DNA of 64,000 nucleotides, from positions 496,001-560,000 of the forward strand of contig RSEE01000024.1 of the NCBI GenBank assembly GCA_003971905.1. The letters run 5' to 3'. A model generated the notes under the pieces. That model saw only the letters and a list, made by a program, of their open reading frames with translations. It was not told the DNA's origin and did not search any database. The stretch is from Moniliella sp. 'wahieum' (lineage: Eukaryota). A program made the position numbers and the translations under genes. The stretch's first letter is position 1; each line of letters opens with the position of its first letter. Shown here in pieces: positions 12,754 through 59,158 of this stretch.

Positions 12754-13749
12754 ATGCCACCCATCTCCTCCACCCACCCCTCCCAGGTCCCAGCCGACCC
12801 CATTCTCTATTCCTTCCCGACCAAGGACGACCTGTCCAAGTGTCTCGCCGAGTTTGTCATCAAGGTGCGTCTCTTGGCTACTCAAGCCAAACCCGATGCT
12901 CCCTATCTCCTGTGCGCCTAGCTGACCACTCCCCCTTCGCTTTCGCACGGCAGGCCCAAGATGAAGCCATTGCCCGGCGTAACAAGTTCACCCTCGCCAC
13001 GTCGGGCGGTAGCCTGCCGGCCATGTTGGCCAAACACCTCATTGACCGGACTGACAATCGCCTGCGCTGGGATAAGTGGTACGTACCCTAACCCATCCTC
13101 CTCCCAGCTGCTCACTTGTGGCCTCTGCCACCCTCTCTGCTAACATTGTCTCTGATACTCTAGGGACATCTGGTTCTGCGACGAGCGTCTCGTGCCGCTG
13201 GATGACAAGGAGTCCAACTTTTGGCTGTGCAACGAGGAGTTCTTTTCCAAAGTACCCGAGCTTAAACGCTCCCAGATCCATACCATCGACGAAACTCAGT
13301 TGAATGATGCTGAGGAGGTGGCGGACGCATACGAGAAGGAACTCGTCCACGCCTTTGCGGGGAAATCGTCGGTGCGCCACCCGGTGTTTGATCTGATCCT
13401 GCTCGGCATGGGTCCAGACGGCCACACTGCTTCGCTGTTCCCACATCATGAGCTACTCAGCGAGACGGACCGTTGGGTGGCACCTATTGAGGATGCTCCG
13501 AAGCCGCCCCCGCGGCGGGTGACGTTCACCTACCCTGTGCTGAACCATGCGCACCGCGTTGCCTTTGTTCTCGCCGGTGAGGGCAAGCAGGAACTTTTGT
13601 CCAAGACGCTTGATCACCCGGAGGAAGGCCTTCCTGCTTCGCGTGTGCGCCCTGTCCCGCCTGGTGACATTTACTTTTTCACTGATGACGCTGCGTCTGC
13701 CAAGGTGCAATACCCGCAGTCAGCCTTCAAGCTGCACCCTCTCCCGTAA
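12754..13749 (+). CDS. 6-phosphogluconolactonase (SOL family); introns 12865-12953 and 13079-13163
   Basis: [42 protein letters not shown]. Confidence 0.95.
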
Positions 13750-14323: not shown

Positions 14324-14510
14324 ATTTTTTGCCCATCTCTAAAAAAGAGATATATGTTCTCTTTTGCACACTTGGACTTGCATATACATTGCGCTCAGAG
14401 GTATCAACTGCCCTTAATGCCTTCTCCCAAGAATGAATGCAGGACTGGGAGTGTTCAACTGCTCACAGCAATTTTGGAGCATACTGTTTTGGATACGGAT
14501 GAGACTTGTA

Positions 14511-14863
14511 TGCTAAAGTGCGACTTGGGAGCACTCGCGATCCTATGGATCAGCTGCAAAGCAGCCTTCAGACAAGGCGTGAAGGCAAAGTGGTGAGCCA
14601 CAAGTCTTCAAGCAACGTCTCATTGTGAGGAGCAACAGGTCAAGAAAGGAAGCAGAGGCGTACCTTCAGACAAGGCGTGAAGGCAAAGTGGTGAGCCACA
14701 AGTCTTCAAGCAACGTCTGAAGGGAAGGAGAAAGGAGAGAGAGAAGGGAGATGGAGCGAGCAGGGCGTGCGCGGCCTGCGAGCGGAACGCTTCCGCTCGG
14801 CTAGGCGAGCGTCACCGATCCATTGAGGGCCGCGCAGGAGAACCCTAGCAGTACCCTCTAACA
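14511..14863 (-). repeat. 3' LTR (353 bp)
   Basis: differs from the other LTR by one substitution and one 2-bp indel by eye. Confidence 0.95.
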
Positions 14864-15029
14864 GCCCCCTCGGTGAGCTCGCCAGACCACAGGTGGTGGT
14901 GGTCCTCGGCCAAGGGCCAAGGCATGGATGAAAGAAGAAAGGATGTCTCCAGCGCCTCTGGTCAAAAAGTGAAAGGAAAACATAATTGGCAAGCGATGTT
15001 GCCAAGTCAAGGTAAGAGAAACAGTAATT

Positions 15030-15370
15030 CAACGCATGGAGGTAAGGAGGAAGCGTAGAAAGTCACAGAGGTCAATTCAACTTGGAAGTATAAACAACAT
15101 GTTCCAAGTCGAAACAGGATGTTCAGCGTATGAGGGAGGAAGCGTAGAAAGTCATAGAGGTCAATTCAACTTGGAGGTAGAAACAACATGTTCCAAGTCG
15201 AAAGAGTATGCTGAACGTGTGCAGGTAAGGAAGTTTTGAAAGTCATAGAGGTCGATTCAACTTGGAGATATAGACAACATATATGCCAAGTCGAACCGAA
15301 GCCAAAGTCGAACAGTAAAAACGTAGAGTTGGAGGTCGAGTAGAGCCATAGAAGGCAATTCAACTGGAAA
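15030..15370. repeat. ~89-bp degenerate tandem repeats in the non-coding part of the LTR element
   Basis: AAAGTCAYAGAGGTCRATTCAACTTGGA...ACAACAT..CCAAGTCGAA recurs near 15058, 15148, 15238 and degenerately near 15340. Confidence 0.85.
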
Positions 15371-15506
15371 AGAAACCAACAAGTCAAAGTGGCACAGTCA
15401 TGAAAAAGAGAAAAAGGACCAAATTCAGGACAGAAAAAGGATGACGACTGGTTCAACCGCCACGCGGACCAGCGTCAACGATGGTTCGAAAGTACCTTGT
15501 AGGTGA

Positions 15507-18500
15507 TCAGTACACTTCGCAAGCAGCACCGCTGGCAAAGGAGCGACCAAAGTCTTCCGGGCCCGGGTCAGGGATGAAAGTGCAACGGCTGCTCATGTAG
15601 CGTACACTAGAGACAGTGCCTCCCGTCTTGAGACAGCCAAAGAAACTCCCACTTGGGCCAGAAAGGAAACCATAGCCGCCCATGCAGCCCACATAGTCAA
15701 CAGCACCGCCAATCTTGGAACGGTCAAGGTACCCCGCGCCCGGGTCAGGTAGGAAACGGCCACAACCATTAGTGTAACCTAAACCGTCAACAGCGCCACT
15801 GCTCTTGAGACGGTCGAAGTATCCCCCGCCCGGGTCAAGTAGAAAATTGCCACAACCATTAGTGTAGCCGAAACTGTCAACAGTAGCACTGGTCTTGGGA
15901 CGGTCAAAGTACCCCCCGCCCGTGTCAAAGAGGAAACTGCCACCGCTGTCAGTGTGGCCCAAACTGTCAACAGCAGCACTGGTCTTGGGACGGCCAAAGT
16001 ACCCCCGCCCAGGTCAGATAGGAAAGTGCCACCGCTGCCCGTGTAGCCCAAAACATAAACGGTGCCCCCGATCGTCGATCGGTCAAAGTACCACTGGTCC
16101 GAGTCAGGTAAGAAACTGCCACAGCCGCCCGTGTAGCCCAAATCGTAAACGGTGCCTGTGGTCTTGGAACGATCAAAATACCACCCGCCCGGGTCAGATA
16201 GGAAGCCGTCAGAACCGCCCATCATGTTGGGTGCAATGGGAGAGCGGGACGTTAAAGCAGAGCACACAAGAGGACCAACGAGTCCGCACATTACCTCCCT
16301 AGCTAACCAAGTAAGAAGGGCAGCTAGGGTGGCTTGCGTCGGTGTTGGGCCCCGGCCAAGAGACCTCAGGTCAGTATCAATATTCTCTCCCGACATGACA
16401 ATGTGTGCCTGAGGGTCGGTGCCGTGCCCGTGCTTAATTTGGAACAGGCAGGCCTGCCAACACATGGTGAGTATCGCTGAAAAGGGTGGGTGGGAGGGAA
16501 CAGTAAGGCAAGGTGGTCCGGGCGCGTAAATGCATGTGCGGAAGGACGGGGGCAGCCCCCCTTTTTCCCGCATCCCGTCGATGGCCGCAAGCTCTGACAC
16601 AGCGGCAATCGCCTTCCCTGCGTATGGTGCTAGGCCGACCGTGCAAAGCTTGTCCGCAAGCTCGGCGACCGTTAATTCTCCATGTCCAGCCGCCAGGTCG
16701 ACACCGCCACACGCCATCGGCCCCCCTTGATCGGACGCTCGGCCAATAGCAGCGCGCGACATCGGTCCCCCTTGGTCAGGCACCAGGCCGACACGTCCAC
16801 ACGCCATCGGCCCCCCTTTGTCAGGCGCTTGGCCAATGGCACCACACGCGGTCGGCCCCCTTTGTCGGGCGCCTGGCCAATAGCGCCACACGCTATCGGC
16901 CCCCCTTGGTCGGGTGCCTGATGGACGTCAATGGGAACCGGGCCACCAAGCGCCTGGTCGGACGCCATGCCATCCACCGGCCCCCCTTTGTCAGACGCTA
17001 GGCCAACCACCGGCCCCCCTTGATAGGGTGCCAAGCCAACCACCGGCCCCCCTTTGTCAGACGCTAGGCCAACCACCGGCCCCCCTTCATCGGGTACCGG
17101 GCCAGCCATCGTTTCCTCTTCATCGGGTGAAGAGGCACCAAGCGCCATCGGCCCCCCTTGGCCAGGCGCCTGAACTTTAACAGGTACCAGGCCACCGAGC
17201 GCCTGATCAGGTGCCATGCCATCTACCGTCCCCACTGTATCAGGCGCCAGGCCAGCCACCGGCCCCCCTTGATCGGGTGCCAAGTCAGCCATTGTTTCCC
17301 CTTCATCGGGTGCAAAGGCACCGAGCGTAATCAGCCCCCCTTTACGAGGCGACGGGACTGCAACGGGTACCGGGCCACCAAGCGCCTGATCGGTTGTCTG
17401 ATCCTGAGCCACGATAGCAACTGACATGGACCTGGGGGAATGCACCTCCCGTGACGCATAGTCACCACCCGCTGGGGGTAAGTCCGGGCCGACAGATGCC
17501 ATCGCAGCCACAGGATCCGGCTTGGCGATAGCAGCTGGCGTGGACCTGGGGGAATGCACCTCCCGTGACACATAGTCACCACCCGCTGGGGGTAAGTCCG
17601 GGCCGACAGATGCCATCGCAGCCACAGGATCCGGTTCGGCGATAGCAGCTGGCGTGGACCTGGGGGAATGCACCCCCAGTGACGCATGGTCACCACCCGC
17701 TGGGGGTAAATCCGGACCAACAGATGCCATCGCAACCGCTGAAACCTGAGCAGCAACAGCAACTGACCCCTCCTGAAGCGAATGCGCCCCCGACGTCGTA
17801 TGGACTTGATCCGCCGGTCGTGAATCAGGGTCGACGGATTCCATCGGAGCCACAAGGTCATGAACCACGACAGCAGGTGACATGGACTCGGAGGAATGTG
17901 CTTCCGACGGAATACAGGCACCATGTTCTGTGAGTAAGTCCGGGCCAACAGACGGCATTGCTGCAACAGGGTCATACCCAACAGCAGCTAACTCAGCCCC
18001 GGACTTGGGACTAGCGGGATGCATCGTCAGTAAATCAGGACCAACGCGTGGCATCTTGCCCAGAGGCTCATGGGCGACAGCAACTGGCTCACACGCGGGC
18101 GAAGCAAGGTGTTCCGCTGGCTCGCTGGCACCACGAGCCGGGAAAGGCTCGTCAACGAGTGGTGCTGCAGCCAGAGGTATGCCAGCACGATCACGAGGGC
18201 AATCCACATGCTTGGGGCCAGACACGACCACACCTTGGGGCTCTCTGATACAGTCCGCTGGGTCGAGGAGCATGTCACGCATGGCACGACGCTTCAGAGC
18301 GACACGCTTGCGAATGTGTTTGGAAGCCTGATCGATCTCGTACAGTTTCCAAGCAAGCCGCACATCACGGAGACACTGGTCCAGTTGCCACCGCAAGTCA
18401 TCAATGCTAGAGAAGCAGTGGTTCCTGGTGTAAAAGGCATAGGCAACATAGAAGTCGGTCGGTGTGAGCAAGACGTCTTCGCCGCCATGGTCTTGCTGTA

Positions 18501-18851
18501 GTTGGCAACGAGATTAGCCACCAAGGAGTCCTTGTCTGCAACTGTCGAACCAGGGAGCGGGGAGGCGATGCCACTCATCGGCATACCCCAGTGGCGAATG
18601 GTAGGAATGACTTCCAGGATGAACTTGGCAGCGACGTCCTCGTCAACGTCCGAAAGAACGGCGTTCAGTTTAGCCCAAGCATAAGTCGTGCCCTTGATGC
18701 GAAAATCCGGCCACTTCGCTGTCGTGCCAGGGGCTATCCCGACTTGGGAGTTGGGGTCAAACTCGCCACGACGAACATACGCTTCCACAATGTCGCGAGG
18801 CGAGTAAACCGGGTGCGCAGAATGCGCAGAGGCAGAAGATAAGGGCGACAT
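15507..18851 (-). CDS. Putative ~1100-aa repeat-rich protein of the LTR element, in four overlapping ORF segments
   Basis: ORFs 18294-18851, 16672-18471, 15779-16891 and 15507-15962 overlap and continue the same peptide repeats across frame changes. Confidence 0.6.
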
Positions 18852-18855
18852 AACC

Positions 18856-19206
18856 TGCTAGAGTGCGACTTGGGAGCACTCGCGATCCTATGGATCAGCT
18901 GCAAAGCAGCCTTCAGACAAGGCGTGAAGGCAAAGTGGTGAGCCACAAGTCTTCAAGCAACGTCTCATTGTGAGGAGCAACAGGTCAAGAAAGGAAGCAG
19001 GCGTACCTTCAGACAAGGCGTGAAGGCAAAGTGGTGAGCCACAAGTCTTCAAGCAACGTCTGAAGGGAAGGAGAAAGGAGAGAGAGAAGGGAGATGGAGC
19101 GAGCAGGGCGTGCGCGGCCTGCGAGCGGAACGCTTCCGCTCGGCTAGGCGAGCGTCACCGATCCATTGAGGGCCGCGCAGGAGAACCCTAGCAGTACCCT
19201 CTAACA
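18856..19206 (-). repeat. 5' LTR (351 bp)
   Basis: direct repeat of 14511-14863. Confidence 0.95.
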
Positions 19207-20468
19207 TTGTAGTCTTGATGGCCTTCACCGTTTGATGTCCTAACGAAAATCAACACCTTGATTGCAGCTACGAGAGCGCCGAGCTGCTATCCAATGCACC
19301 ACGCATGTAGCGCTTCCGCTCCTGTCTAGCTACGAGTTCCTCCGCGTCAGTTTCCCCCTGTTACGGGGCGCTCCGGTTATCTCCGGACGCTGAGCCCGCA
19401 TGTCGTAGACATCTCAGTCCAACATGCGTCAGTCCAGTTAGACTAGCGAGAGAGAGCCAGTCGACACCTTATCCTTGCTGCGGATATCATCCGCGGCCCG
19501 CCATGGCCGCATGGGCTTATCGGTACGATGCTTTGTGCCTATTGCGTCCAGTCTTGTCAAAACCCTTCCTGCTGCGCCCGACTACGCAGCGTCAGCACCT
19601 TTTGGGAAGCAAGGGCTGTGCATTAGTCTTTACCTTTCTGGGAAGTGCCCCGCATTCTGTCTATACCTGTCATGAGGCACTTGAGGCCTGGTTCCTTCTG
19701 CTGTATATAAGCAGCCATGTCTAAGGCTTGCTAGCTGTGGTCCTTGTCGACCATCCTGTCTATTACCGTTGGTCTCCCTGCCTACCAGTTCCTCTCTCGC
19801 CCTTCCACCTTCTACCACCCTTACACTTACAAATTTACGCCACTTACGTCGAGTGCACTGCAAGCCGCGGTTACTCTCATCAGTACCAGTACTCAGTAGC
19901 GCTTGCTCTTCTTTAGGACTCTGTCTGTTCCCGCCTGTTACAGTGTACCGAGTGTGGTAACGTTGCGAGGAACAGAGTAACTTCGGAGCTCCTGGACCCC
20001 TTCAGCTGTGGTCTAACGACCTACGTACGTGGCTCCTATACTTCGGAGGGTCTGAACTACGGCCATCCGATTATTTCCTCTTGGTAGCCTTGAGTCGGAT
20101 CGGATCGTTTTCGACAAACACCTCCTTGCCCTGGCAAAGAGTCCAGCCCGCTGTCTCCTCCAGAAGCGATAAACAAAAGGCCAAGACGTACACCTGTAAA
20201 AGGCTCAGTATCTTACCAGGCTCCAGTCCTCACCGACCTCACCGGTCACCGGTCACCGGTACTTATCTGGTTCTTCTTTCAAATTCCTCCCTGCGCCCCG
20301 TTCCGCCCAGATCCACTTGCTTCGCACGTGACGCGTGACGCGTGATGCAGTTTAAACTAGCGCACAGCTGCCATGTGCTACGATCTTACACCCTCAAAAC
20401 GCACAATAGAGGATCGGACGACACTTACTCCCACCCGCCACCACTGCCACCACCACCCCTCCGCCCCC

Positions 20469-21413
20469 ATGGCCACCCCAGCACCAATAAGTGCAGCCAC
20501 AGCTACTGCCTGGGGGTGTTTCCTCTCGGTTACATATGTTGCCGTGCTCTGGGTTGACAAGGCCCATCGCGTCGGGGCCCGGTCCTATTCTGACCCGCAG
20601 GTTATCCGTCATCGCCTCTTCGTTGCTTCCGCCACAACCGCAGCGGAAGTCGTTCTGACTGCCCTCCTTCTAGGCGGTGTGTCCCGAGCGAATGGAATGT
20701 CCATCGGAGATGCGGCGTATTCTGCCTTTACCCAGCTCGGATTTCACCTCTCTGTCTCCACTGCTGTCCTTTCTGTTGTGGTTGGCACGGGCCTCACTGC
20801 ACTGATGTACATTGCCCAATTAGTTCAAGATTTTATCGACGGGGAGCTTCCGTGGCAAGCCAACGCTTGCGACGGTCATTTTTCCAACCCGTTCAAATCG
20901 CCTGCTGCGGTGCGCAACTTTGTTCTTGGTCCCCTCACCGAGGAACTCGTTTTTCGTGCCGCTGTGCTGGCGCCCTTTGTCGCTGCTGGAACCAGCCGTG
21001 TCACTCTGCTCTTTCTGGCGCCCATCTTTTTTTCCCTCGCTCACGTGCACCATGCTTTTGAACTCTATGCGTCTCATGGTCGCACCCCCAAGCGGCTGTC
21101 CAGGCCTTGCAAGTCGTTCTGGTTCAAGTGGGTTACACCTTTCTGTTTGGGTGGTACGCAAACTGGCTCTTCCTGCGCACTGGTACGACCCTTCCTCTCC
21201 TCCAAGCCCATCACATTGTTACTAATGTTATTCAGGCTCGTTTGTGGCTCCTCTCGCGGCTCACGTGCTGTGCAACTATCTTGGGCTCCCTCTTCCATGT
21301 GGGCCACCCCACCAAAAGAGGCTCTTCGCTCTCCAAGCCATTGGTGCTCTCACGTTTGGATTGCTCATTGCCCCTATTACTGCTTCCCATTTATTTCCTC
21401 ACTCTCTCTGGTA
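20469..21413 (+). CDS. RCE1: CAAX prenyl protease 2 (Abi/CPBP family); frameshift near 21100, intron ~21183-21236, 3' end approximate
   Basis: RNFVLGPLTEELVFRA, FFSLAHVHH, QVGYTFLFGWYANWLFLRTG, AHVLCNYLGLP; multiple hydrophobic segments. Confidence 0.9.
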
Positions 21414-21535
21414 AAAGGAAAACATGCACGATGCACATCCATTCCCTCTGGCTTTGGACCCGTAGCACGTGGTGCCAACCGCAAACGCTGGTACTGAGCA
21501 CAGATGCTCGCCAACCTTGCTGGTCTGCCTGCACT

Positions 21536-22891: not shown

Positions 22892-25800
22892 ATGGTGCTC
22901 TCCCATCCCTACCCTGTCCTCTCCACCGACGAGCCCCGTCCTGTCCGCGGCCTGCCCATTCGCGCCGTGCGCGAGCGCCGCCTGGGCGAGTTTGTCGGCG
23001 GCCAGTACAACGAGTACAACCTCTCTGCCCTCCTTTTCGAGGCCCGCACCGATGACAAGGCGTACATCCGTCTGGCCCGCTGGGACCCTGAGCCCTGGCT
23101 CCACCCCCACCCCAAAGGCAAGGGCGGCGAGGTGATCAACAAGCCCTCCTTTGCCGAGGCTGTCAAGCAAACCTACACCCCCACACGCAAGGGCACCACC
23201 TTTGGTCCCAGCTGGACCAACCACTGGGTCCGGGTCACCTTCACCCTCCCCCCGCACTGGGCCAAGCGTGAGCTTGGTTCGGTCCAGCTCGAGTTTGACC
23301 CAGGGTGTGAAGCAATGATCTTCAATGACCAGGGCCTGCCTCTCCAAGGACTCACCGGCGGAGGAGATGTGAACCGGCGCGTGGATCTCCGCTCAGCGCA
23401 TCCATGCTCCAAGCCGGCACGGTCACTACGCTCTACATTGAAATCACCGCCAATGGCATGGGCGGGCTTCCGCCCGCTGGTTCGGGCAAAGACCCGGACC
23501 CAAACCGGTATTTCGAGCTGAGCTCAGCCGACCTGGTGCTGAAGCGGCTGGATGCATGGCGCCTGATGTGGGACTTCAACCTGCTCCGTGGAGCCGTGGA
23601 CTGGGTGGATCGGAACACGGTGCTGCAGAATAAAGCTCTTTGGGTCGCCAACGAGATCCAAAACACGTTCCGTCACACAGATGTGGGGTCGATTGCCCGA
23701 TGCCGCAAGCTGGCCGAAGAGGTGCTGGGGGAAAAATGGGACGCCAAGCCCCAGTCCATCTGGACCCAACCTACCAACACCACCACAACCGTCTGGGCCA
23801 TGGGACACTGTCACATCGACTCATGCTGGCTTTGGCCGAAGAAGATTACGGAGCAAAAAGTGGCGCGGTCGTGGTCGACCCAAGTGTCGCTCATGGAGCG
23901 TTACCCCGAGCACCGTTTCACCGCTCCCAGGCCGCCCAGTTTCACTGGCTGAAACACTTTACCTTCCCTCTTCGAGAAGCTCAAGCGCTTTGTCGCCTCG
24001 GGACAGTTCATTCCCATCGGAGGAAGCTGGGTGGAGAATGATGCTAACCTTCCTTCCGGAGAAGCATTGTGGCGTCAATTTGGCATGGTCAACGCTACTT
24101 TCTGTCGCGGTTCGGACAGCGGTTGTAAGATCTTTGGTTACCCGACACGTTTGGGTACAATGCCCAGATCCCTCAGCTGGCACGATCGGCAGGGATGGAT
24201 TACTTCTTTACCCAGAAACTCAGTTGGAACAACATCAATCACTATCCGCACAACACAGTCATGTGGCAGGGCCTCGATGGCAGCCAGATCATCACGCATT
24301 TTTCCCCGTGGAGAACTACGATTCCCAATGCCGTTTGGACGATATTACCAAGTGCATGAAGAACAGTATGTCTGCACCTTCTCCCCGCGCCCCTCCCGTA
24401 TCTATACGTGCTAACTGCTGGCTGATAGACGGCAACTTGGATGTTCAACCCAACGGTCTCCTCCTTTTCGGATACGGCGACGGCGGTGGTGGTCCCAACG
24501 AGACTCATATCCACAACCTCCGGCGCGCTCGGGCGGCCCATAACAATGGCTACACCGACATTCCCAAGGTGGAAGTGGCCAAGTCGGTGCAAGACTTTTA
24601 CGACGAAGTGCTGCGCGTAACCGATGGGGGCAAACGGCTGCCCACATGGAAAGGGGACCTGTATCTCGAGTTCCATCGCGGGGTCTATACTTCGCATGGG
24701 AGCATCAAGCGGTGGAACCGCAAGTTGGAGATCAAACTGCACAACGTGGAGTGGGTGGCGACGCTGGCCTCGCTGATTGGAGAAGAGTATGCCTACCCCA
24801 AGAAGGCACTGGACGAGCTGTGGGAGAGCTTGTTGTTCAACCAGTTCCACGACATTTTGCCTGGCTCCTCCATCCGCATGGTGTACGAGGATGCCGAGAA
24901 AGACTATGCTGCGATCGACAAGAAAGCCGATAAGCTCCTCGCCGCCGCTGAAAAAATCTTGTTAGCCAACGATTCGAACACCATCTTGTCCATCGACAGT
25001 CTTTCTCTCACCCAGGGCGGCTCAATTGTTGCGCTCAATACACTTGCCACCTCGCGGTACGAATTGGTTCCTGTTCCTCTGGGGGCAAACGGGGTGCAAG
25101 CAGCTCTGGCAACGGGTGGCGCGCAAGTGACCGTAACCCCCATGGGAAGATGGCGTTGGTGCCAATGCAAGATCCCGCTGGCGAAGGAATTGCGACCTTC
25201 TCGCCGACCCATGCGGCCGAGGTGGGCAACCGAGCCCGTCGCAGTGGTGCTCAGGCGTACTACGATGCGGAGGCCAAGAGTTATGTGCTGAGTAATGGAG
25301 TGACCAAGGTTGTTTTCCACGGTGGACGGATCACATCCTTCTATGACCAAACGCTGGGGCGGGAACTGCTCCGCACAGGCCAGACCGCCGGATTGACGAT
25401 TGCCGAGGACTACCCTCCCTCCTGGGACGCATGGGAGACAGAGGTGTACTCGCTGGATATGGAGGAGGGGATCGCATTCGACTCGGTTTCGCCGAATGAG
25501 GAGCAGGGTCCGCTCCGTGCTTCTCTGGTGGGCAAGGCCAACTTTGGAAAGAGCTCCGTGGCAATCAAGTTTTCACTGGAAACCGCTGGAGAGGGCGCAG
25601 GTCAGCCCCGCTCGCCCCTCGTGCTGGACTTTACCGTGGACTGGCAAGAGAAACACCGCTTCCTCCGCTTTGTGTGTGCCGACCAACCTGGTGGCAGACA
25701 GCGCTAGCTACGAAACCCAATTCGGTATCACACGTCGCCCCACCGGGCGTAACACCTCCTGGGACGCAGCCAAGTTCGAAGGCTGTGCTCATCGCTTTGT

Positions 25801-37562: not shown

Positions 37563-38857
<1,295 letters not shown>

Positions 38858-43141: not shown

Positions 43142-45560
43142 ATGCAGCGCAAGTCCCCGCCTGCCATGCCATCTCCGCCGCCCGACGAGCCGGCTGGCCG
43201 CGCCACCGCCGATCGCGAAGCGAAGCTCATGAAGAGCTTCAACGTCGACGGCTGTGTGTCCGCCCCAGCACCTGGCATGGAAGAGCTCAACATTTTCGCT
43301 GCGTACAAGGCACGCTTCCGCGAGGATCCTCTTGCTTTCCTCCACATGGTCTGGGCATATGGCGTGGGCGTTGACTGGCGCAGCTACAAGGACTACATTG
43401 GCGCCCCCATCCTGTACCCCTCTGCCACCGTCGAGGCGATCCACAGCCTGGTCACGAGCGAGGCTGTGCAATTGCGTATCAATCAGCTTGCCACGGCTCG
43501 GATCGATGCTCTGCTCCCCGACGACGCCGCGCCCAAAACCAACAAGGAGCGCAAGGCCTACATTGTGTTCAAGCAGAGAAAACGCGCTGACATGGTCCGC
43601 CAGCTGTCCGACACGACCCGCAGCATCGCAGAGAAGATGGCTGCACGGCTTGACAGCCCCCCCGTGCTCAAGATTTTTGCGGCTACGGTCAACCCTCCTT
43701 GGCCGCCTCTACCACCAGGGCATTCACATCAATGTTCCCGAGATCATTGCCCTGCGGCAAACCGCGTTAAAGGCGGCTGAGAAGAAACAGAGCATCGTCT
43801 TCCTCCCCTGCCACAAGAGCCACATTGACTACCTCACCGTAAGCTGGATCATGTTCCGCATTGGCATTGCTGTCCCACACATTGTGGCCGGGGACAACCT
43901 AGACATGCCGCTTGTAGGAGACTTCCTCCGCAAAGGGGGGGCAATGTTCATTCGCCGCTCCTTTAAAGGCGACGAACTCTACCCGATCGTCATTCGCGAA
44001 TACATTGAGCAGATTATCGCAACGGGCAAGAACCTGGAATGCTTCATCGAAGGCACCCGCTCCCGCACGGGCAAGCTTCTTCCCCCAAGTTCGGCATCCT
44101 GAGCTACATTGTCGATGGCTTCCTTGCCGGTCGCACGTCCGACGTGTGGATCTGCCCCGTCTCGCTCCAGTACGACAGCGTGATCGAGAGTGAAACGTAT
44201 GTGTCGGAGCTTCTTGGCAAACCCAAAGAATCAGAGTCGCTCATGGGGCTACTGAGCGGCTCAAGCGACATTCTCCAGCTCAAAATGGGACGGATCGATA
44301 TTCGTTTCCAGCAACCTTGGTCTCTCAATGAGTTTATTCAATCGGAGAAGGCCCGCCGCACAGCTGCCCATGGGGTGGAATTCCAACCCCGCAACCCCAA
44401 AGACAACCATGTCCTGCTCAAGAGCCTGAGCTACCGCGTGTTGGGCGACATTAACCGTGTGAGTGTCGTCATGCCCGCCGCCTTGGTGGGGACAGTGATT
44501 CTCACTCTGCGCGGACGAGGAGTGGGCAAACGGGAGCTCATTCGCCGGGTAGAAAGGCTACGCGCACGTATTCTCCAGAAGGGGTACCGTGTCGCCGACT
44601 TTGGCACCATGTCCACCTCAGAGGTGGTGGACCGTGCTCTGGGACTGATGAAGGGCTTGATTGTGGTGCACAATGATTTGCTCGAACCCACCTTTGAACC
44701 CGTCAAACGCTTTGATCTTTCCCTCTACCGCAACCAAACGATCCATTGTTTCGTTTCCGAGGTGCTCTTGGCTGCTACACTATACGACCATCAAGCAAGG
44801 CCCTTACCAAGGCTCTGGGATGATGGCCCGAAACGAATTTGTGGCTGAGGTGTCCTTCCTCTCGTGGATTTTCAAGAATGAGTTCATTTTCCCTCCTGGT
44901 CAGATCGAGGACACGGTGAAGCAGGGGATCCAGGAAATGGAAGCCGAAGGTGTCTTTACCGTCGCCGAGGACGGGGCAATCGGCCTCAGGGCTGAGGAGA
45001 TTGCAAGCGGACGGGAAACGTTTGATGCCTACCTCTTCATGATCTGGCCTTTCATTGAAGGCTACTGGCTTGCGGCATGCGCCTTACTCTGCCTGATGCC
45101 TTCGTCGGATCAAAGTGGAATGGGGGAGCACATCGTCTGGGTCAGTGCCAAAGAGTTTGAGAAGCGGGCACAATTGTTTGGTAAGACGTTGTACCACCAA
45201 GGTGAGCTGTCTTACCTCGAGGCCAACTCGATCGCTGTCTTGCAGCAAGCTATGGGGCGGTACCAAGAGATGGGCATGCTTATCCGCCGCTCATCCAGGG
45301 CAGTCAAGCCTGTCCCTATCATTGGTTGCACCCGGATTGGAAACCGGAGTGGGAAGAGGTGGAGGGAGAACGGCGTCCACGTCCATCGGGGCGATTGTGG
45401 GATTACCTTGCCCGCCTCGGCACGTTCCGTCGCGAAGGAAAAGACCGCAGGGAGGCGTTTATGGGTCAGCGAATCTTGCAAAGCGCCTCGGACAACAGGG
45501 CCTGTCATCGAACGCACCCCGTGGCCTGAACGCCCTGCCGAAGCGCTAGCTCACCTCTGA
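43142..45560 (+). CDS. Glycerol-3-phosphate/dihydroxyacetone-phosphate acyltransferase (GPAT/DHAPAT family); frameshifts; start may be 43166
   Basis: FLPCHKSHIDY (HxxxxD), GAMFIRRSF, FIEGTRSRTGKLLPP, PVSLQYDSVIE. Confidence 0.9.
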
Positions 45561-46418: not shown

Positions 46419-49400
46419 GTGCATTCCATTGACAGAGCTTAAGGCTGGGACAGGGGGAACGCTACGTCTAAACCGAACCGTTCATCTTGCGGGGGTTACT
46501 TGGAAGCGCCACCAAGATTAAGGACCAGGGGGATCGCCAGGATATCAGGACCCTCCGGCTCACGCCATCCTCCCGTACCCTAGGAAGCGCGTGTGGACAC
46601 GGAGGAACGTGGTTGACATACGAGCGAGGAACCATTTCCACTGAGACTTAGTAGCCAACTCCTTCCAATGGCAAACAACTTGCCCGCCGTCTTGGTGCCG
46701 TAGTATCCTCGCGTCGTCAAAAACCAGGGGGAAAAACGGTTCTTGAGTGCGTCCCTGGTACTTGGCGTTCTTGTCGCATTCTGCTTGTTCAAGCAGCCGA
46801 AGCAGTTCCTTCTCCCGGCGTTTCCAAAGGCGACGCAGTGCTCTCATGCACCACCCGCCGGTACGCGCTCTGCGCCTCCTGCGATCCCGTGTCGCGCAGC
46901 GTGGGTCTACCTCCATTCCGGTTCCTCCCAGTGCTCCGGGCCCCATCACGCGGTAATCGGTGCGCGTGCCTTCCGTCCGCGCCTCGTCCCATCCTCTTCC
47001 TCCACCATAGGTTCGTTGTGGACGTGGGTGTCGGGGATGGAGCGGAGGAGCTGGAGAATGGGCTCCCGCACTGCCTCATGCAACGCACCAAACTTGGCCT
47101 GGGTGCGGGTGCAGGACATGATGTGTTCCAGCGAGGACATGACGCCGCACTTGCACATGCTGCGCGTGGTGCGGCACAGCGTGCGGAGCTGGAGACCAAC
47201 CTGGACCTGCTGGTCAGAGAGCTTGAGGTACGGGACGGATGGAATAGCGGAGAGCCAGTTGTGGCTCAGCGGGTTGCTGTGCTCAACCACATGACGACCA
47301 TCGGCAGCGTCCAGCTTCTGGAGCAGCTCCTGTCGACTTTGCTCCCACATCTCGCGGCAGCGCTGGCGTTGCTTCGTAAATGCGTTGGCCCTTGCCGTTT
47401 GCGGTCCCGAACGGTCAACATAAGTGGTAATAAGATAGTCGTTGACCTCGTTGGCCGCGGCACGGGCGTGGGGCGCAATATACGAGTAAAGCGGGCTGCC
47501 ACATCCTCCCAGCCGAAGAGGCAGGCTCATGAGCATGTCGAAGTGGTCGTCCTTGGCACCTTGGGGATCCTCGTCGCCCGGATCCGTCTGAACTCCGTAC
47601 AGATGAAGCATCAATCTCGGCCAGCACGTCGTCTAGCTCTCCTTCCATCTGCATGGTGCGGAGCAGGTGGCGCAGCTTGGTCTGAGTGCTGAGCCGCCAT
47701 AGTAAGAGGCGTCCCTGGCGGGTGATGCCATCAAACTTAGGCATGTTCTCCCTCAGACTGGCCAGTTGGGCCCGGAGCCACGATCGACGACAGTCTACCC
47801 CTCCCACACAAGTGCCCAGAACCTGCAGACCATCCACCCGAATCTGGTCCCGGTCCCGCTCGACACACTTGCGCAGGTTGAGCTTGAGGCCTGACGCGTC
47901 GTCTTCCAAAATCTCCGCGGCTAGGCCGGTAATGCCTGGCCCTGGACCGAAGATCGTAATGTCGTCCAGGTATGCCATCACCAGGTGCCCCGGCGGCAGG
48001 TCCTGTTCCAGTTTCTCCAGCGTGGGCCGCACTGCGATGGAGAAGAAAAAGGGGGCGGGGGTCGCCCTGCCGTACGCCCTCTGCCGACAGGACGTTGGTC
48101 TCATTTCCGCCCGACGCGACCCAGAGCTGGGTGGGGGAACCATAGATCCATCGGCCCAACGTGAGGAGATGGGGGGCGTAGGCATGGAGCGCCTTGGCGA
48201 GTGTGCGACGGCGCACAGTGTTGAAGGCGTTGGTAAAGTCGAGCATGGCGACGTGGCTGAAGTCGCCCAGTTCCGCATTTCTCCCCGCCTGGCGCTGTCA
48301 TGCGCTCGACCATCCGTACGATAGGCTCCACCCCGTTTTGCGATGCTACTCCCAACTGGGTGGGGAGAAGCCAGCTGTTGGGGGCGATCGCTCGAGCGAT
48401 GGCCTTGGCGCACAGGCGGTAGATCAGCTCCCCACAGGCGATGGGGCGGATGCCTCCCGATGCCTTCTCCAGGGGGGTGAGGCGGGAGGCCAACAGGAGC
48501 TCGCGTCCTGGGGCGGTGCCGTGGTAAATACTCTTGGTGAGGGCGGTGAGAAAGGCGACGAAGCGCTTGCATTCAAGGGCCGTTCGTAGGAGGGGCTGGG
48601 TCCACCCGGATAGACCTGCCCCAACGTCGATTCTGAACGTGGCAATCAAGGCAACAAAGTCGATTTCGTCCAAGTCCACCACGATACGGCCACTGTCCGT
48701 CGTGTCGGTGGGTGGTGCCCGGCGGTACCACGCGGCCTGTGTGGGTGGGACGAGTGCGGGTGGTGGTGTTGCCAAAGGCTGTGCCCGGGCCGAGGCTGAA
48801 GGGGTTCGCCTCTCCAACGGGGTGGAGCTTTTCCAGGCTTGCCTGGGTCTCGGGGGTGAGAGGGGCAATGGTGGATTGGCCGACGAGGGTACTTGCTGCG
48901 CGGCTGAGGCAGCCCTCCCGAATGAGGCGGTCGGCCTTGGTGACTGGGTCGAGTGCCTCGCGCGTTGAGAAGTCGGGGGCGGAGGGAGTTGCCAGGCGCT
49001 GTTGGGGTACGTCCCGATGAGGTTATTGTCCTTGTTGTGGTGGCGGAGTACTTCCTTAGGCACCGCTAGAATATCCATCAGGTGTGCCGACGAGGGCTCC
49101 TGCAAGTAAGCGTCCGCCAAACGGCCGAGCATCTGAAGGAAAGGGCGCTTCAGGTGTGGCGGTATCTTGCGTGTGCCTGGGCGCTCGGCCAGGGCGGTCA
49201 AACGGGGAAGGAGGTCGGCCCCCGTGTCGGTCGAGGGGTTGCGCGGTCGTCTGGTGGCGGTGGTGGTGGGGGCGGCGGCGGCGGCGGGGGGGGCGGTGTG
49301 CGGGGGGCGCGGGGGGGTTGAGGGGTCGGGGTGGCGGCGGCGGGGGGCTGTCTGCGCGGGGGCGCGGCGCGGGCGTGGGGTAGTGGGGGTGGGGTCTCGG

Positions 49401-49998
49401 CGCCGTAGCCATTGGTTGGCTGTTCGGAGCCCAGCCGGGGGCTGCGGCGCCGGGGGGTGGCGAGTTGGGGGTTGGGGAGGAGGGGCGTGCCTTGACCCGG
49501 TACTTCGGGCACCGGGTTCCTGGCTTCGGAGTTGCGGGGGCAGCGGGCCCTGTTGTGGCCAGGGTTCGTGCAAAGGGAGCAATGATACTCGCGCTTGGGG
49601 GTGAGTCGGTGGCGGGGGGGGCTGGGGTGGTGGGTACGGGGACGGGGGTGGTGGGGATGGGGGTGGGGGTGGCGGCGGGCGGGGCGGGCGTGTCACGTGC
49701 CAGGACCCCAGGTGGCAGCAAGCCGGCGCCGGTCACGTGGTCAGGCATCTGCTCAGGTTGAGTGAATGTCTCATCGACCGGCACTTGGTGCTCTGGGGCC
49801 AAAGGGGCGGCGTGGGGGAAAGGGGGGTGTGGGGGACGGGGCGGGAGCGGGGGGCGGGGCTCCCGGGGGGGGGCGTCTCGGGCGCCAGGACCTCCTCGGG
49901 GGATCCGCCATACGGGTGCGCAACACCATGGCGGTGCGGGGTGGTGGTCACCGGGTGTGCACCCGAAGGTGGTGGTCGCAAGGGGCGCTCCCAAATAA
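46419..49998 (-). mobile_element. Non-LTR retrotransposon, CRE-clade-like (RT + CCHC + restriction-like endonuclease), near full length
   Basis: [77 protein letters not shown]; 10-bp TSD CCCTAATGTT at 46409-46418 and 49999-50008. Confidence 0.9.
46560..49929 (-). CDS. Frameshifted single ORF of the non-LTR element (Pro-rich N-terminus, zinc knuckle, RT, RLE); start approximate
   Basis: motifs in the expected order across ORFs 48101-49696, 47737-48246, 47415-48572, 46946-47614 and 46560-46949. Confidence 0.85.
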
Positions 49999-50028
49999 CC
50001 CTAATGTTATAACTGCAAAAAAATGATT

Positions 50029-50100
50029 TGCCTCTTGGCCGAATCGAACGACCGATCTTCTCATTACTAGTGAGATGCTTTACCACTGAGCCAAAGAGGC
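50029..50100 (-). tRNA. tRNA-Thr(AGT), intronless
   Basis: GCCTCTT/AAGAGGC acceptor, TCTCA-CTAGTAA-TGAGA anticodon arm, GTTCGATTC, T7 terminator at 50023-50017. Confidence 0.95.
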
Positions 50101-57622: not shown

Positions 57623-58976
57623 ATGCTCCCGTCCATTCCGACCGTTCAGGATGTGCCGCGGCTGTGGCAGCAACATCTCTACCGCTCCCCCCTGCCGCGC
57701 AGTGACAAGGAGCAGGAGGGGTATGTGCTTGGCGTTGACGAGGCCGGCCGAGGACCGGTGCTGGGTACGTGTTCCCCGGCAACCAACGTTTCCAAGCACC
57801 TAACTGAACTGAACTGAACTGATGCCACGGCAGGACCTTTGGTATATGCCATTGCGCTCTGTCCCACCTCGTACCACGACCAGGTGGGAGAGATGGGGTT
57901 CAATGATTCCAAGGCGCTGACCGAGGTGCGACGGGAGGAACTGTTCCAGACAATGGAGCAGGACCCTCAGTTGGCGTATGCCACCCTCGCTCTTTCCCCT
58001 GCCTCGATCAGCGCGGGTATGCTGCGCCGTATGCCCCACAATCTCAATGCCCAGTCCTTGGGCGCCACGGTAGAGTTGATTGCGGGTGTATTGGACCGGG
58101 TGCGCGTGACAGCGATCTATGTGGATACGGTGGGCGACCCGGAGCGGTACCGACAGACGCTCAAGTCGTATTTTAACATGCCCAAGTACAAGGACATTGA
58201 CTGGGTTGTCGCGTCTAAGGCCGATGCCACGTACCCTGTCACGGGCGCTGCCTCCATCGCGGCCAAAGTGACAAGAGACGCGTTCATTATGCACTGGGCT
58301 TACCCAGAGCCCGGGCTGGGGGGGACCATTCCCCTTCCTGCGACGACGAAGAGAGGAGGAACCGGCGGCAGTCCCGGCCAAACGGGGGAGAGGCAAGAAA
58401 GGCGGGCCGAATAAGAAGACCAAAACGATGTGCGAACCTACGATGCAAGAAAAAGCGTTTTGGATACCAGGCAGCGGCTACCCTTCTGACCCCAACACAT
58501 CTGCCTACCTCGTCCGTGCGTTGGATCCCGTCTTTGGCTGGCCCAACATTGTCCGCTTCTCCTGGGCCACCTCCAAAAACATGTTGCAAGAGAAGAAGCG
58601 GGTCGACTTTCCCAAAACCCGAGCGAACGCTGGAAAGGCACCTCCTCCCGTGGCCGAGGACCAAGCCGTGTCGCCCTTTGGCACGCGACTGCCCTCGGGC
58701 CTCCGGGCCTACCCGGTGCGTTGGATGGATGAGCCCGTGACGCTTACCAGCTTTTTTGGAAAGAAGAGCGCGGAGAAGAAGGAATGGGAGGCAGCTGGAC
58801 AGGCTGCCGCCGCGGCTCATACCCAGGCTCGGACGGGCCTACCGAGCGAGCTGGGACTGCAGCCGGCTTCTCTGGGCTTCTTTAATCCATTCTTCCTAGT
58901 CGGTTGGGCTACTTGTTTGTTTCGGAAATGGGTAGGGTGGGCTAAAGGGGTGGGAGCACAATGTTCGTTTCATTAA
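57623..58976 (+). CDS. RNH201: Ribonuclease H2 catalytic subunit A; intron 57765-57833; frameshift near 58400, 3' end approximate
   Basis: LGVDEAGRGPVLG|PLVY, FNDSKAL, IYVDTVG, KADATYPVTGAASIAAKVTRD, GSGYPSDPNT, VRFSWAT. Confidence 0.93.
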
Positions 58977-59158
58977 GGATGCGAGGGCTGAACGAGCAAA
59001 CCCAGATTCAAAATTGCTCACCTTGGAAGGGCACATTCGTAGAAGAAAGTGGGAATTAGAGCTTCGGCTCTAGAAGCAGGCGAAGCGGGCAAGTTCAACC
59101 TCAATCAAGTACAAATACGAACGGTCGAGGGATGAACAGCCGCTGTTGTTGTCCACCT

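Follow-up and report, generated by a model that had tools for sequence, protein, structure and literature searches.

Non-autonomous long terminal repeat (LTR) retrotransposons are usually classed as non-coding, as are terminal-repeat retrotransposons in miniature (TRIM) and large retrotransposon derivatives (LARD), or as coding for Gag only, as are terminal-repeat retrotransposons with a GAG domain (TR-GAG). In the part of Chaparro et al. 2015 (PMC4350172) that concerns them, the TR-GAGs of plants are elements of less than 4 kb with a single open reading frame (ORF) that is recognizably Gag. The corresponding parts of the same source describe LARDs as elements of more than 4 kb that have LTRs, no pol, and internal coding regions that were lost, and BARE-2 of barley as an element that kept pol, is missing a working Gag, and depends on a partner. 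LARDs, young ones included, are reported in the basidiomycete Laccaria bicolor in a section of PMC3411680, and the passages on priming in PMC5371799 and in bioRxiv 10.1101/2025.04.25.647736 give half of the initiator tRNA as the primer of Ty5 and Drosophila copia. Here, we describe a 4,696-bp LTR element without recognizable gag or pol in 64,000 nucleotides of Moniliella sp. 'wahieum' (GenBank assembly GCA_003971905.1, contig RSEE01000024.1, positions 496,001 to 560,000, forward strand). This stretch is called the window below, and all positions are counted from its first nucleotide.

With TR-GAGs, as outlined in the source given above, the element shares a single-ORF layout, yet it differs in its length (4,696 bp, not less than 4 kb), in an ORF of ~1,112 codons without a Gag family, in a protein of which about half consists of tandem repeats, and in its fungal host. 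With LARDs, as far as the cited sections describe them, it shares a length above 4 kb, LTRs, the absence of pol, occurrence in a fungus, a location in gene-rich regions, and the capacity to be young. It differs from them in that its interior is nearly all one open path, with host-like codon usage in the unique parts. An earlier reading of this DNA, made from the letters alone (the sequence-only reading), had called the element both LARD-like and TR-GAG-like. The first likeness stands for size, LTRs, and missing pol, but not for the interior, which is open over 1,112 codons, and the second finds no support, as no Gag family matched and both predicted folds are of low confidence. BARE-2, in the account cited, is likewise a non-autonomous LTR element that needs a partner to supply a protein that it lacks; however, it presents the opposite case, since the element described here is without pol altogether. 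For a TRIM, in the outline of that class available to us, the element is too long and too coding. In contrast to Ty5 and copia, which encode gag-pol, no gag-pol is encoded here. We place the element between LARD and TR-GAG, judged from one copy. Our literature search on fungal LARDs with ORFs found no comparable case among the 15 titles listed, and we do not claim that there is none in print.

A recent LTR insertion, probably in reverse orientation

Overall, we lean toward reading the locus as a non-autonomous LTR retrotransposon of 4,696 bp, recently inserted into an intergenic stretch in reverse orientation, with a single orphan ORF for a product that would be Gag-like and with helper proteins provided in trans. 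The LTRs enclose an interior of 3,992 bp and align over 353 columns with 99.15% identity, differing by one mismatch and one 2-nt gap, and both start with TG and end with CA. A perfect 5-bp target-site duplication, TTGTA, adjoins both outer LTR ends and lies within the 4 to 6 bp accepted for LTR retrotransposons. Near-identical LTRs, a perfect duplication, and a recent insertion had all been proposed before, and each of these claims holds. To judge from how little the two LTRs differ, the insertion is young, and it is perhaps younger than 99.15% identity implies, because the caveat on assembly errors discussed below covers both LTR differences too. Each LTR contains a perfect internal duplication of 56 nt (14565-14620 = 14663-14718; 18910-18965 = 19006-19061), which predates the insertion, since both LTRs carry it. 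The 56-nt units are spaced by 98 nt in the left LTR and by 96 nt in the right LTR, and the 2-nt gap between the LTRs falls between the units. CT-rich blocks of the kind seen in the 5' LTR (Table 1) are frequent just upstream of fungal transcription starts.

Directly at the inner LTR edges, and both in the orientation of the ORF, we observe GGTTATGTCGCCC and GAGGGGGC. The primer-site and polypurine signals that had been described as intact are thus found at the inner edges as motifs that are only like those signals: the purines directly at the 3' LTR are GAGGGGG, 7 only, and the primer-site region is without a TGG-type site. Its GGTTATG contains the complement of a CAU anticodon plus AACC, putatively the stretch of the initiator-tRNA anticodon arm that primes Ty5 and copia. 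An initiator-tRNA gene is absent from the window, where the tRNA genes found are those for Thr and Pro only, and a full-text search of the literature returned nothing relevant on GGTTATG as a primer binding site. Because the long open path, the GGTTATG-containing motif at the 5' LTR, and GAGGGGGC at the 3' LTR share the minus strand, we infer that the element is minus-oriented, with the ORF in sense. The superfamily is not assignable from the 5-bp target-site duplication, since Ty3/gypsy elements have one too. The former label "copia-style" has behind it this duplication and the putative primer-site likeness, and we do not retain it.

One reading path for a predicted repeat-rich protein

The interior is traversed on the minus strand by a path of 1,112 sense codons with 0 stops, in agreement with the ~1100 codons from the LTR edge suggested by the sequence-only reading; each fixed frame contains 20 to 42 stops. 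The start codon, the ATG at 18851-18849, is part of the GGTTATG motif, 4 nt in from the LTR edge, and an in-frame TAG is located 2 codons upstream of it, inside the LTR. From this ATG the path runs in frame 1 to ~18500, in frame 0 to ~16865 (a 613-codon ORF), in frame 2 to ~15998 (a 382-codon ORF), and in frame 1 again to the TGA, and its three frame changes are all of the 1-nt-deletion type.

From the N to the C terminus, the protein comprises a unique part, a Pro/Ala linker, arrays of 38-aa, 11/61-aa, and 15-aa repeats, a 155-aa unique stretch, and a 30-aa array. The previous description, a ~200-aa unique domain followed by three arrays, fits the N-terminal ~210 aa and has to be amended for the remainder, which holds four in-ORF arrays and the second unique stretch of 155 aa. 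Tandem peptide repeats account for ~60% of the interior. About 500 aa of Pro/Gly/Ala/Asp-rich repeats lie between the N-terminal domain and the 155-aa stretch, in which no donor/acceptor pair for an intron was found. The 30-aa repeat domain is of Gly/aromatic type, with the unit motif YFDR..K..G.V..LGYT.G.G.FL.D.GG. The whole protein, in which G, A, P, S, V, and D are abundant, is acidic (isoelectric point, 4.9), and its N-terminal domain includes one short basic helix, KHIRKRVALKRRAMR. From the stop to the LTR there remain ~640 nt, including an 89-bp array. This tail array (15046-15295; period, 89 bp; 2.8 copies; spacings, 89 and 91) is located just upstream of the polypurine-like motif.

Coding signal and frame breaks

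Codon usage was scored with a log-odds model built from the Pfam-supported host ORFs of the window, and in a leave-one-out control the true frame was best in 12 of 12 host ORFs (0.016 to 0.533 bits per codon). By this measure the two N-terminal segments of the path are at host level (0.338 and 0.273 bits per codon), with the claimed frame the best of six. The claimed frame is on top in six of nine segments overall; it is the best of six, weakly, in the 155-aa stretch (0.065), and scores in the repeat segments are weak (-0.05 to 0.16). In the tail past the stop, the score is negative in all six frames. The periods of the in-ORF arrays (90, 45, 33/66/183, and 114) are divisible by 3 in four of four cases, and that of the array outside the ORF is 89, with the reservation that a period may come out wrong through deletion errors, as happens in polyubiquitin. 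Between the 38-aa units no purifying signal is seen. In our view, the unique parts are real coding sequence, and the repeat parts are probably coding under little constraint.

The three frame breaks are located in 18480-18513 (break 1), at ~16858-16866 (break 2), and at ~15995-16005 (break 3). Breaks 2 and 3 coincide with a G5 run where sister units have G6. Reading GGGGG as GGGGGG turns DKGG/RPRVV into DKGGPTACG at break 2, and the change from G5 to G6 turns GGG/TLAV into GGGYFGRPK at break 3, in both cases restoring the repeat motif. Runs of at least five G or C occur at 7.8 per kb in the ORF versus 3.9 per kb in the window.

Host genes of the window are disrupted in the same manner. The four-unit polyubiquitin gene (37585-38491, minus strand) passes through frames 0>2>1>0>2, which amounts to four breaks of the 1-nt-deletion type in ~0.9 kb, and Tandem Repeats Finder reports its period as 227 versus 228. 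GPAT has a C5-for-C6 break inside LLPPKFGIL (~44085) and a second break near 44820, and UDP-glucose dehydrogenase (UGDH) is broken inside RN(L)FFSTD (~5748), where two Pfam alignments meet without a gap at profile position 63. The alpha-mannosidase Ams1 changes frame at ~23390, between its first two domains; the change occurs within 50 nt, between residues aligned to 150 and 162 of solved Ams1. An intron was rejected as its cause, since there is no room for one within 50 nt, and the strict GT..AG search, which found none, favors a frameshift. Further frame changes in Ams1 are located at 23928-24443 and ~25300-25400. At three host junctions with gaps of 65 to 100 nt, one in UGDH and two in SKN1, we observe canonical GT..CTRAC..AG introns, so the method does separate introns from breaks.

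These sequence patterns lead us to conclude that single-base deletions are frequent in the assembly, an error typical of unpolished long-read assemblies. Because polyubiquitin, GPAT, UGDH, and Ams1 are broken likewise, the breaks of the ORF are most likely assembly errors, which would leave the ORF probably intact in the real genome, with its three breaks as assembly deletions. The 1-nt-deletion breaks in polyubiquitin and other host genes lend weight to the suggestion that the frameshifts could be corrected. Given such frequent deletions, frame breaks in this genome are not to be read as pseudogenization.

Absence of gag and pol, and orphan status of the product

The Pfam scan covered 32 of the 44 stop-to-stop ORFs of at least 60 aa on both strands, including all those that overlap the interior, and the remaining 12 are from the flanks or the right LTR. 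None of eight ORFs matched any family at E<=1, and at E<=10 six of a further 24 ORFs showed sub-threshold noise (best E, 0.026) without relation to retroelements. Regular expressions for the motifs CCHC (zinc knuckle), YxDD, D(T/S)G (protease), and HHCC (integrase) gave 0 matches in six frames. Reverse transcriptase (RT), integrase, protease, RNase H, and Gag, the domain set expected of an autonomous Ty1/copia or Ty3/gypsy element, thus leave no signal in any frame by Pfam or motif scans. There is no pol present to classify by a copia-type RT or by the order protease, integrase, RT, RNase H. The sequence-only reading had likewise recognized no RT, integrase, protease, or CCHC motif; the empty scans confirm this, and Pfam profiles revealed no degenerate pol domains in the 32 ORFs to E<=10.

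The product was described earlier as novel or extremely diverged, and Pfam, word-index, and phmmer searches detected no relatives of it. An exhaustive phmmer search of the 613-aa ORF, the only piece included, against 1.84 billion cluster representatives gave one match, repeat against repeat. This match, P0002, was rejected: its own 11-aa DARGAPVFGVA repeats align with the 11-aa repeats of the element and it is unrelated elsewhere, which points to a similarity of repeats and composition. Word-index searches found no homologue among 506 candidates for residues 1-140 of the 613-aa ORF, among 3,132 candidates for the 185-aa N-terminal ORF against longer proteins, or among 8,000 scored candidates for residues 20-312 of the 382-aa ORF. 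The ESM Atlas contained no usable match to the N-terminal 120 aa or to the 30-aa repeat domain, and three sequence queries of the PDB returned 0, 0, and two coiled-coil-type noise matches (E, 0.24 and 0.64). In metagenomes, a protein-pattern scan gave 598 pattern matches of which 0 were confirmed, and a scan for the junction of LTR and primer site gave 0 matches. No paralogue of the ORF is present in the window. Exact look-ups in the protein collection retrieved 0 of 5 sequences (four element ORFs and one host ORF), so the host lineage seems to be absent from it, and "orphan" here means without a relative outside an unsampled lineage.

AlphaFold models computed without an alignment had a mean predicted local distance difference test score (pLDDT) of 56 for piece B (140 aa) and 43 for piece A (the N-terminal 114 aa), which is too poor for fold matching. 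With low confidence, the model of piece B shows a helix at 18-31 and a 44-residue helix at 37-80, and that of piece A five short helices. Nothing links the product to Gag, and it may yet be a lineage-specific packaging protein.

Proposed mobilization in trans and alternative explanations

The cis parts that an LTR retrotransposon requires to be reverse transcribed and integrated are present at this locus as LTRs with TG..CA and a 5-bp target-site duplication, and primer-site-like and polypurine-like motifs are correctly placed. As these parts occur without any of the enzymes, another element must have provided the RT and integrase that inserted this one, a dependence of enzyme-less LTR elements that is established retrotransposon biology. 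RT, integrase, and probably the capsid would be supplied in trans from another genomic locus, by an autonomous LTR element. Our best guess for the product is a lineage-specific, self-associating, Gag-like protein that may mark or package the element RNA.

Several observations weigh against this reading. The element is represented by one copy only, as no further copies of the LTR or the interior are found within the window. No Gag family matched, the AlphaFold models are unreliable at the pLDDT values given above, and the protein is acidic and without a zinc knuckle, unlike most Gag proteins. The putative resemblance of the primer site to the initiator tRNA is imperfect after 7 nt. As to the ORF, the claimed frame is not on top in three of nine segments, break 1 lies outside any homopolymer, and tandem repeats of GC-rich sequence keep frames open more easily. 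In the claimed frame, the ratio of nonsynonymous to synonymous differences (pN/pS) amounts to 0.84 among the 38-aa units, and a different offset yields the lower value of 0.43; among the 30-aa units the claimed frame has 0.60 versus 0.73 to 0.91 in the other frames, a weak signal only.

The product may instead be captured cargo, that is, a host or horizontally acquired repeat-protein gene taken up by template switching during reverse transcription and unrelated to transposition, for which the LTR element would be no more than a carrier and amplifier, and this we judge unlikely. The host-level codon usage of the N-terminal domain and an acidic, repeat-rich protein without Gag or nucleocapsid features would fit such an origin. 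However, the window holds no paralogue and the 1.84 billion cluster representatives, searched with the 613-aa ORF, no homologue, with the host lineage perhaps unsampled. The ORF begins right inside the primer-site motif, without remains of a foreign 5' untranslated region, and neither a poly(A) remnant nor an intron was seen.

The locus could also be a non-coding LARD, in which a decayed or never-coding repeat spacer, together with the relic of an old ORF, stays open as a by-product of GC-rich tandem repeats; we consider this distinctly unlikely. In its favor are the three frame breaks, the pN/pS of ~0.84 among 38-aa units without a frame preference, the weak codon scores in the repeat segments (-0.05 to 0.16), and the lack of a homologue anywhere searched. 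Yet 330 non-repetitive N-terminal codons are open, with host-like scores in just the frames that we claim, the three breaks all belong to the error type found in the disrupted polyubiquitin gene, each of the four in-ORF arrays has a period divisible by 3, and the coding signal is gone past the terminal stop.

A degenerate autonomous element, with a gag-pol too diverged or too broken for recognition, is close to refuted: the LTR architecture speaks for it and nothing more, while no retroelement domains are better conserved than RT, RNase H, and integrase and still 0 of 32 ORFs matched any of these, even at E<=10, no catalytic motif occurs in six frames, and tandem peptide repeats make up ~60% of the interior. 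That the locus is no transposon, and that a host gene is flanked by chance by a 350-bp segmental direct repeat, would agree with the single copy in the window and is scarcely credible in view of the TG..CA termini, the exact 5-bp flanking duplication, and the two motifs, one purine-rich and one like a primer site, that sit right at the inner ends of the LTRs.

On a further reading, the ORF would be intact and expressed, and its product something other than Gag or pol, so that the element is the vehicle of a "cargo gene" for a large repeat protein adapted to the codons of the host or encodes a new type of capsid or packaging protein without capsid/nucleocapsid ancestry. We give this reading little probability. 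If it were true, the element would belong to a protein-coding non-autonomous class outside TRIM, LARD, TR-GAG, and BARE-2. More generally, a young fungal element with a probably intact ORF for a protein without relatives would show that elements of this type may be carriers that spread genes of another sort, or that unrelated proteins can fulfill Gag-like functions. The element offers a concrete test case through copies, a partner element, and expression data.

Features of the element and its genomic setting

Table 1. Coordinates of the LTR element and its parts in the window
Feature	Position	Strand	Remarks
Target-site duplication, left, TTGTA	14506..14510		Identical to 19207-19211
3' LTR (element orientation), 353 nt, TG..CA	14511..14863	-	99.15% identical to 18856-19206
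Polypurine-tract-like GAGGGGGC adjoining 3' LTR	14864..14871	-	Sequence read; short; putative function
Untranslated tail past ORF, with 89-bp tandem array	14872..15506	-	Period 89; codon-usage score negative in six frames
Stop codon TGA	15507..15509	-	Ends the reading path
C-terminal 30-aa repeats, ~7-8 units	15552..16225	-	Period 90, 5.5 copies; frame break 3 inside
Second unique stretch, 155 aa, between third and fourth arrays	16226..16690	-	No Pfam or PDB match
15-aa repeats (..APDKGGPMACG..)	16705..16920	-	Period 45, one spacing of 44; frame break 2 inside
11-aa repeats (APDQGGPVVGL) nested in 61-aa units	16957..17391	-	Periods 33, 66, 183
38-aa repeats, five: 3 close and 2 degenerate	17400..17993	-	Period 114
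Pro/Ala-rich linker, predicted unstructured	17994..18228	-	pLDDT ~40, model B residues 82-140
Unique N-terminal domain, ~207-215 aa, mostly helical in low-confidence models	18229..18851	-	Frame break 1 inside
Primer-binding-site-like GGTTATGTCGCCC adjoining 5' LTR, holds ORF ATG	18843..18855	-	Sequence read
5' LTR (element orientation), 351 nt	18856..19206	-	CT-rich block upstream of duplicated 56-nt unit, sense strand
Target-site duplication, right, TTGTA	19207..19211		Identical to 14506-14510

The window has a GC content of ~57% and is fungal, with a basidiomycete-like appearance. Its host genes include actin, UGDH, RabGAP, 6-phosphogluconolactonase, Rce1-like, Ams1 alpha-mannosidase, SKN1/KRE6, polyubiquitin, coatomer gamma, GPAT, and polysaccharide deacetylase. 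The element is flanked by a 6-phosphogluconolactonase-like ORF (13156-13746) on one side and an Rce1-like ORF (20361-21497) on the other, and with these neighbors the insertion looks intergenic. The reconstructed empty site is crossed by one ORF only, of 84 codons.

Apart from the element, the minus strand of 47415-50000 is very GC-rich (to 72% GC) and contains three long overlapping ORFs. One of them has a sub-threshold match to RVT_1 (E, 8.7e-4; score, 19.5 bits; cut-off, 29.6) in the C-terminal motifs of the profile, which could reflect a diverged telomerase RT or chance. Neither flanking direct repeats nor a PDB match was found for this block of ORFs, and it is no evident partner of the LTR element. 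It is adjoined by the gene for tRNA-Thr(AGU) (50029-50100, minus strand). The second tRNA gene of the window, tRNA-Pro(CGG) (58890-58984, plus strand), has a length of 95 nt, which suggests an intron.

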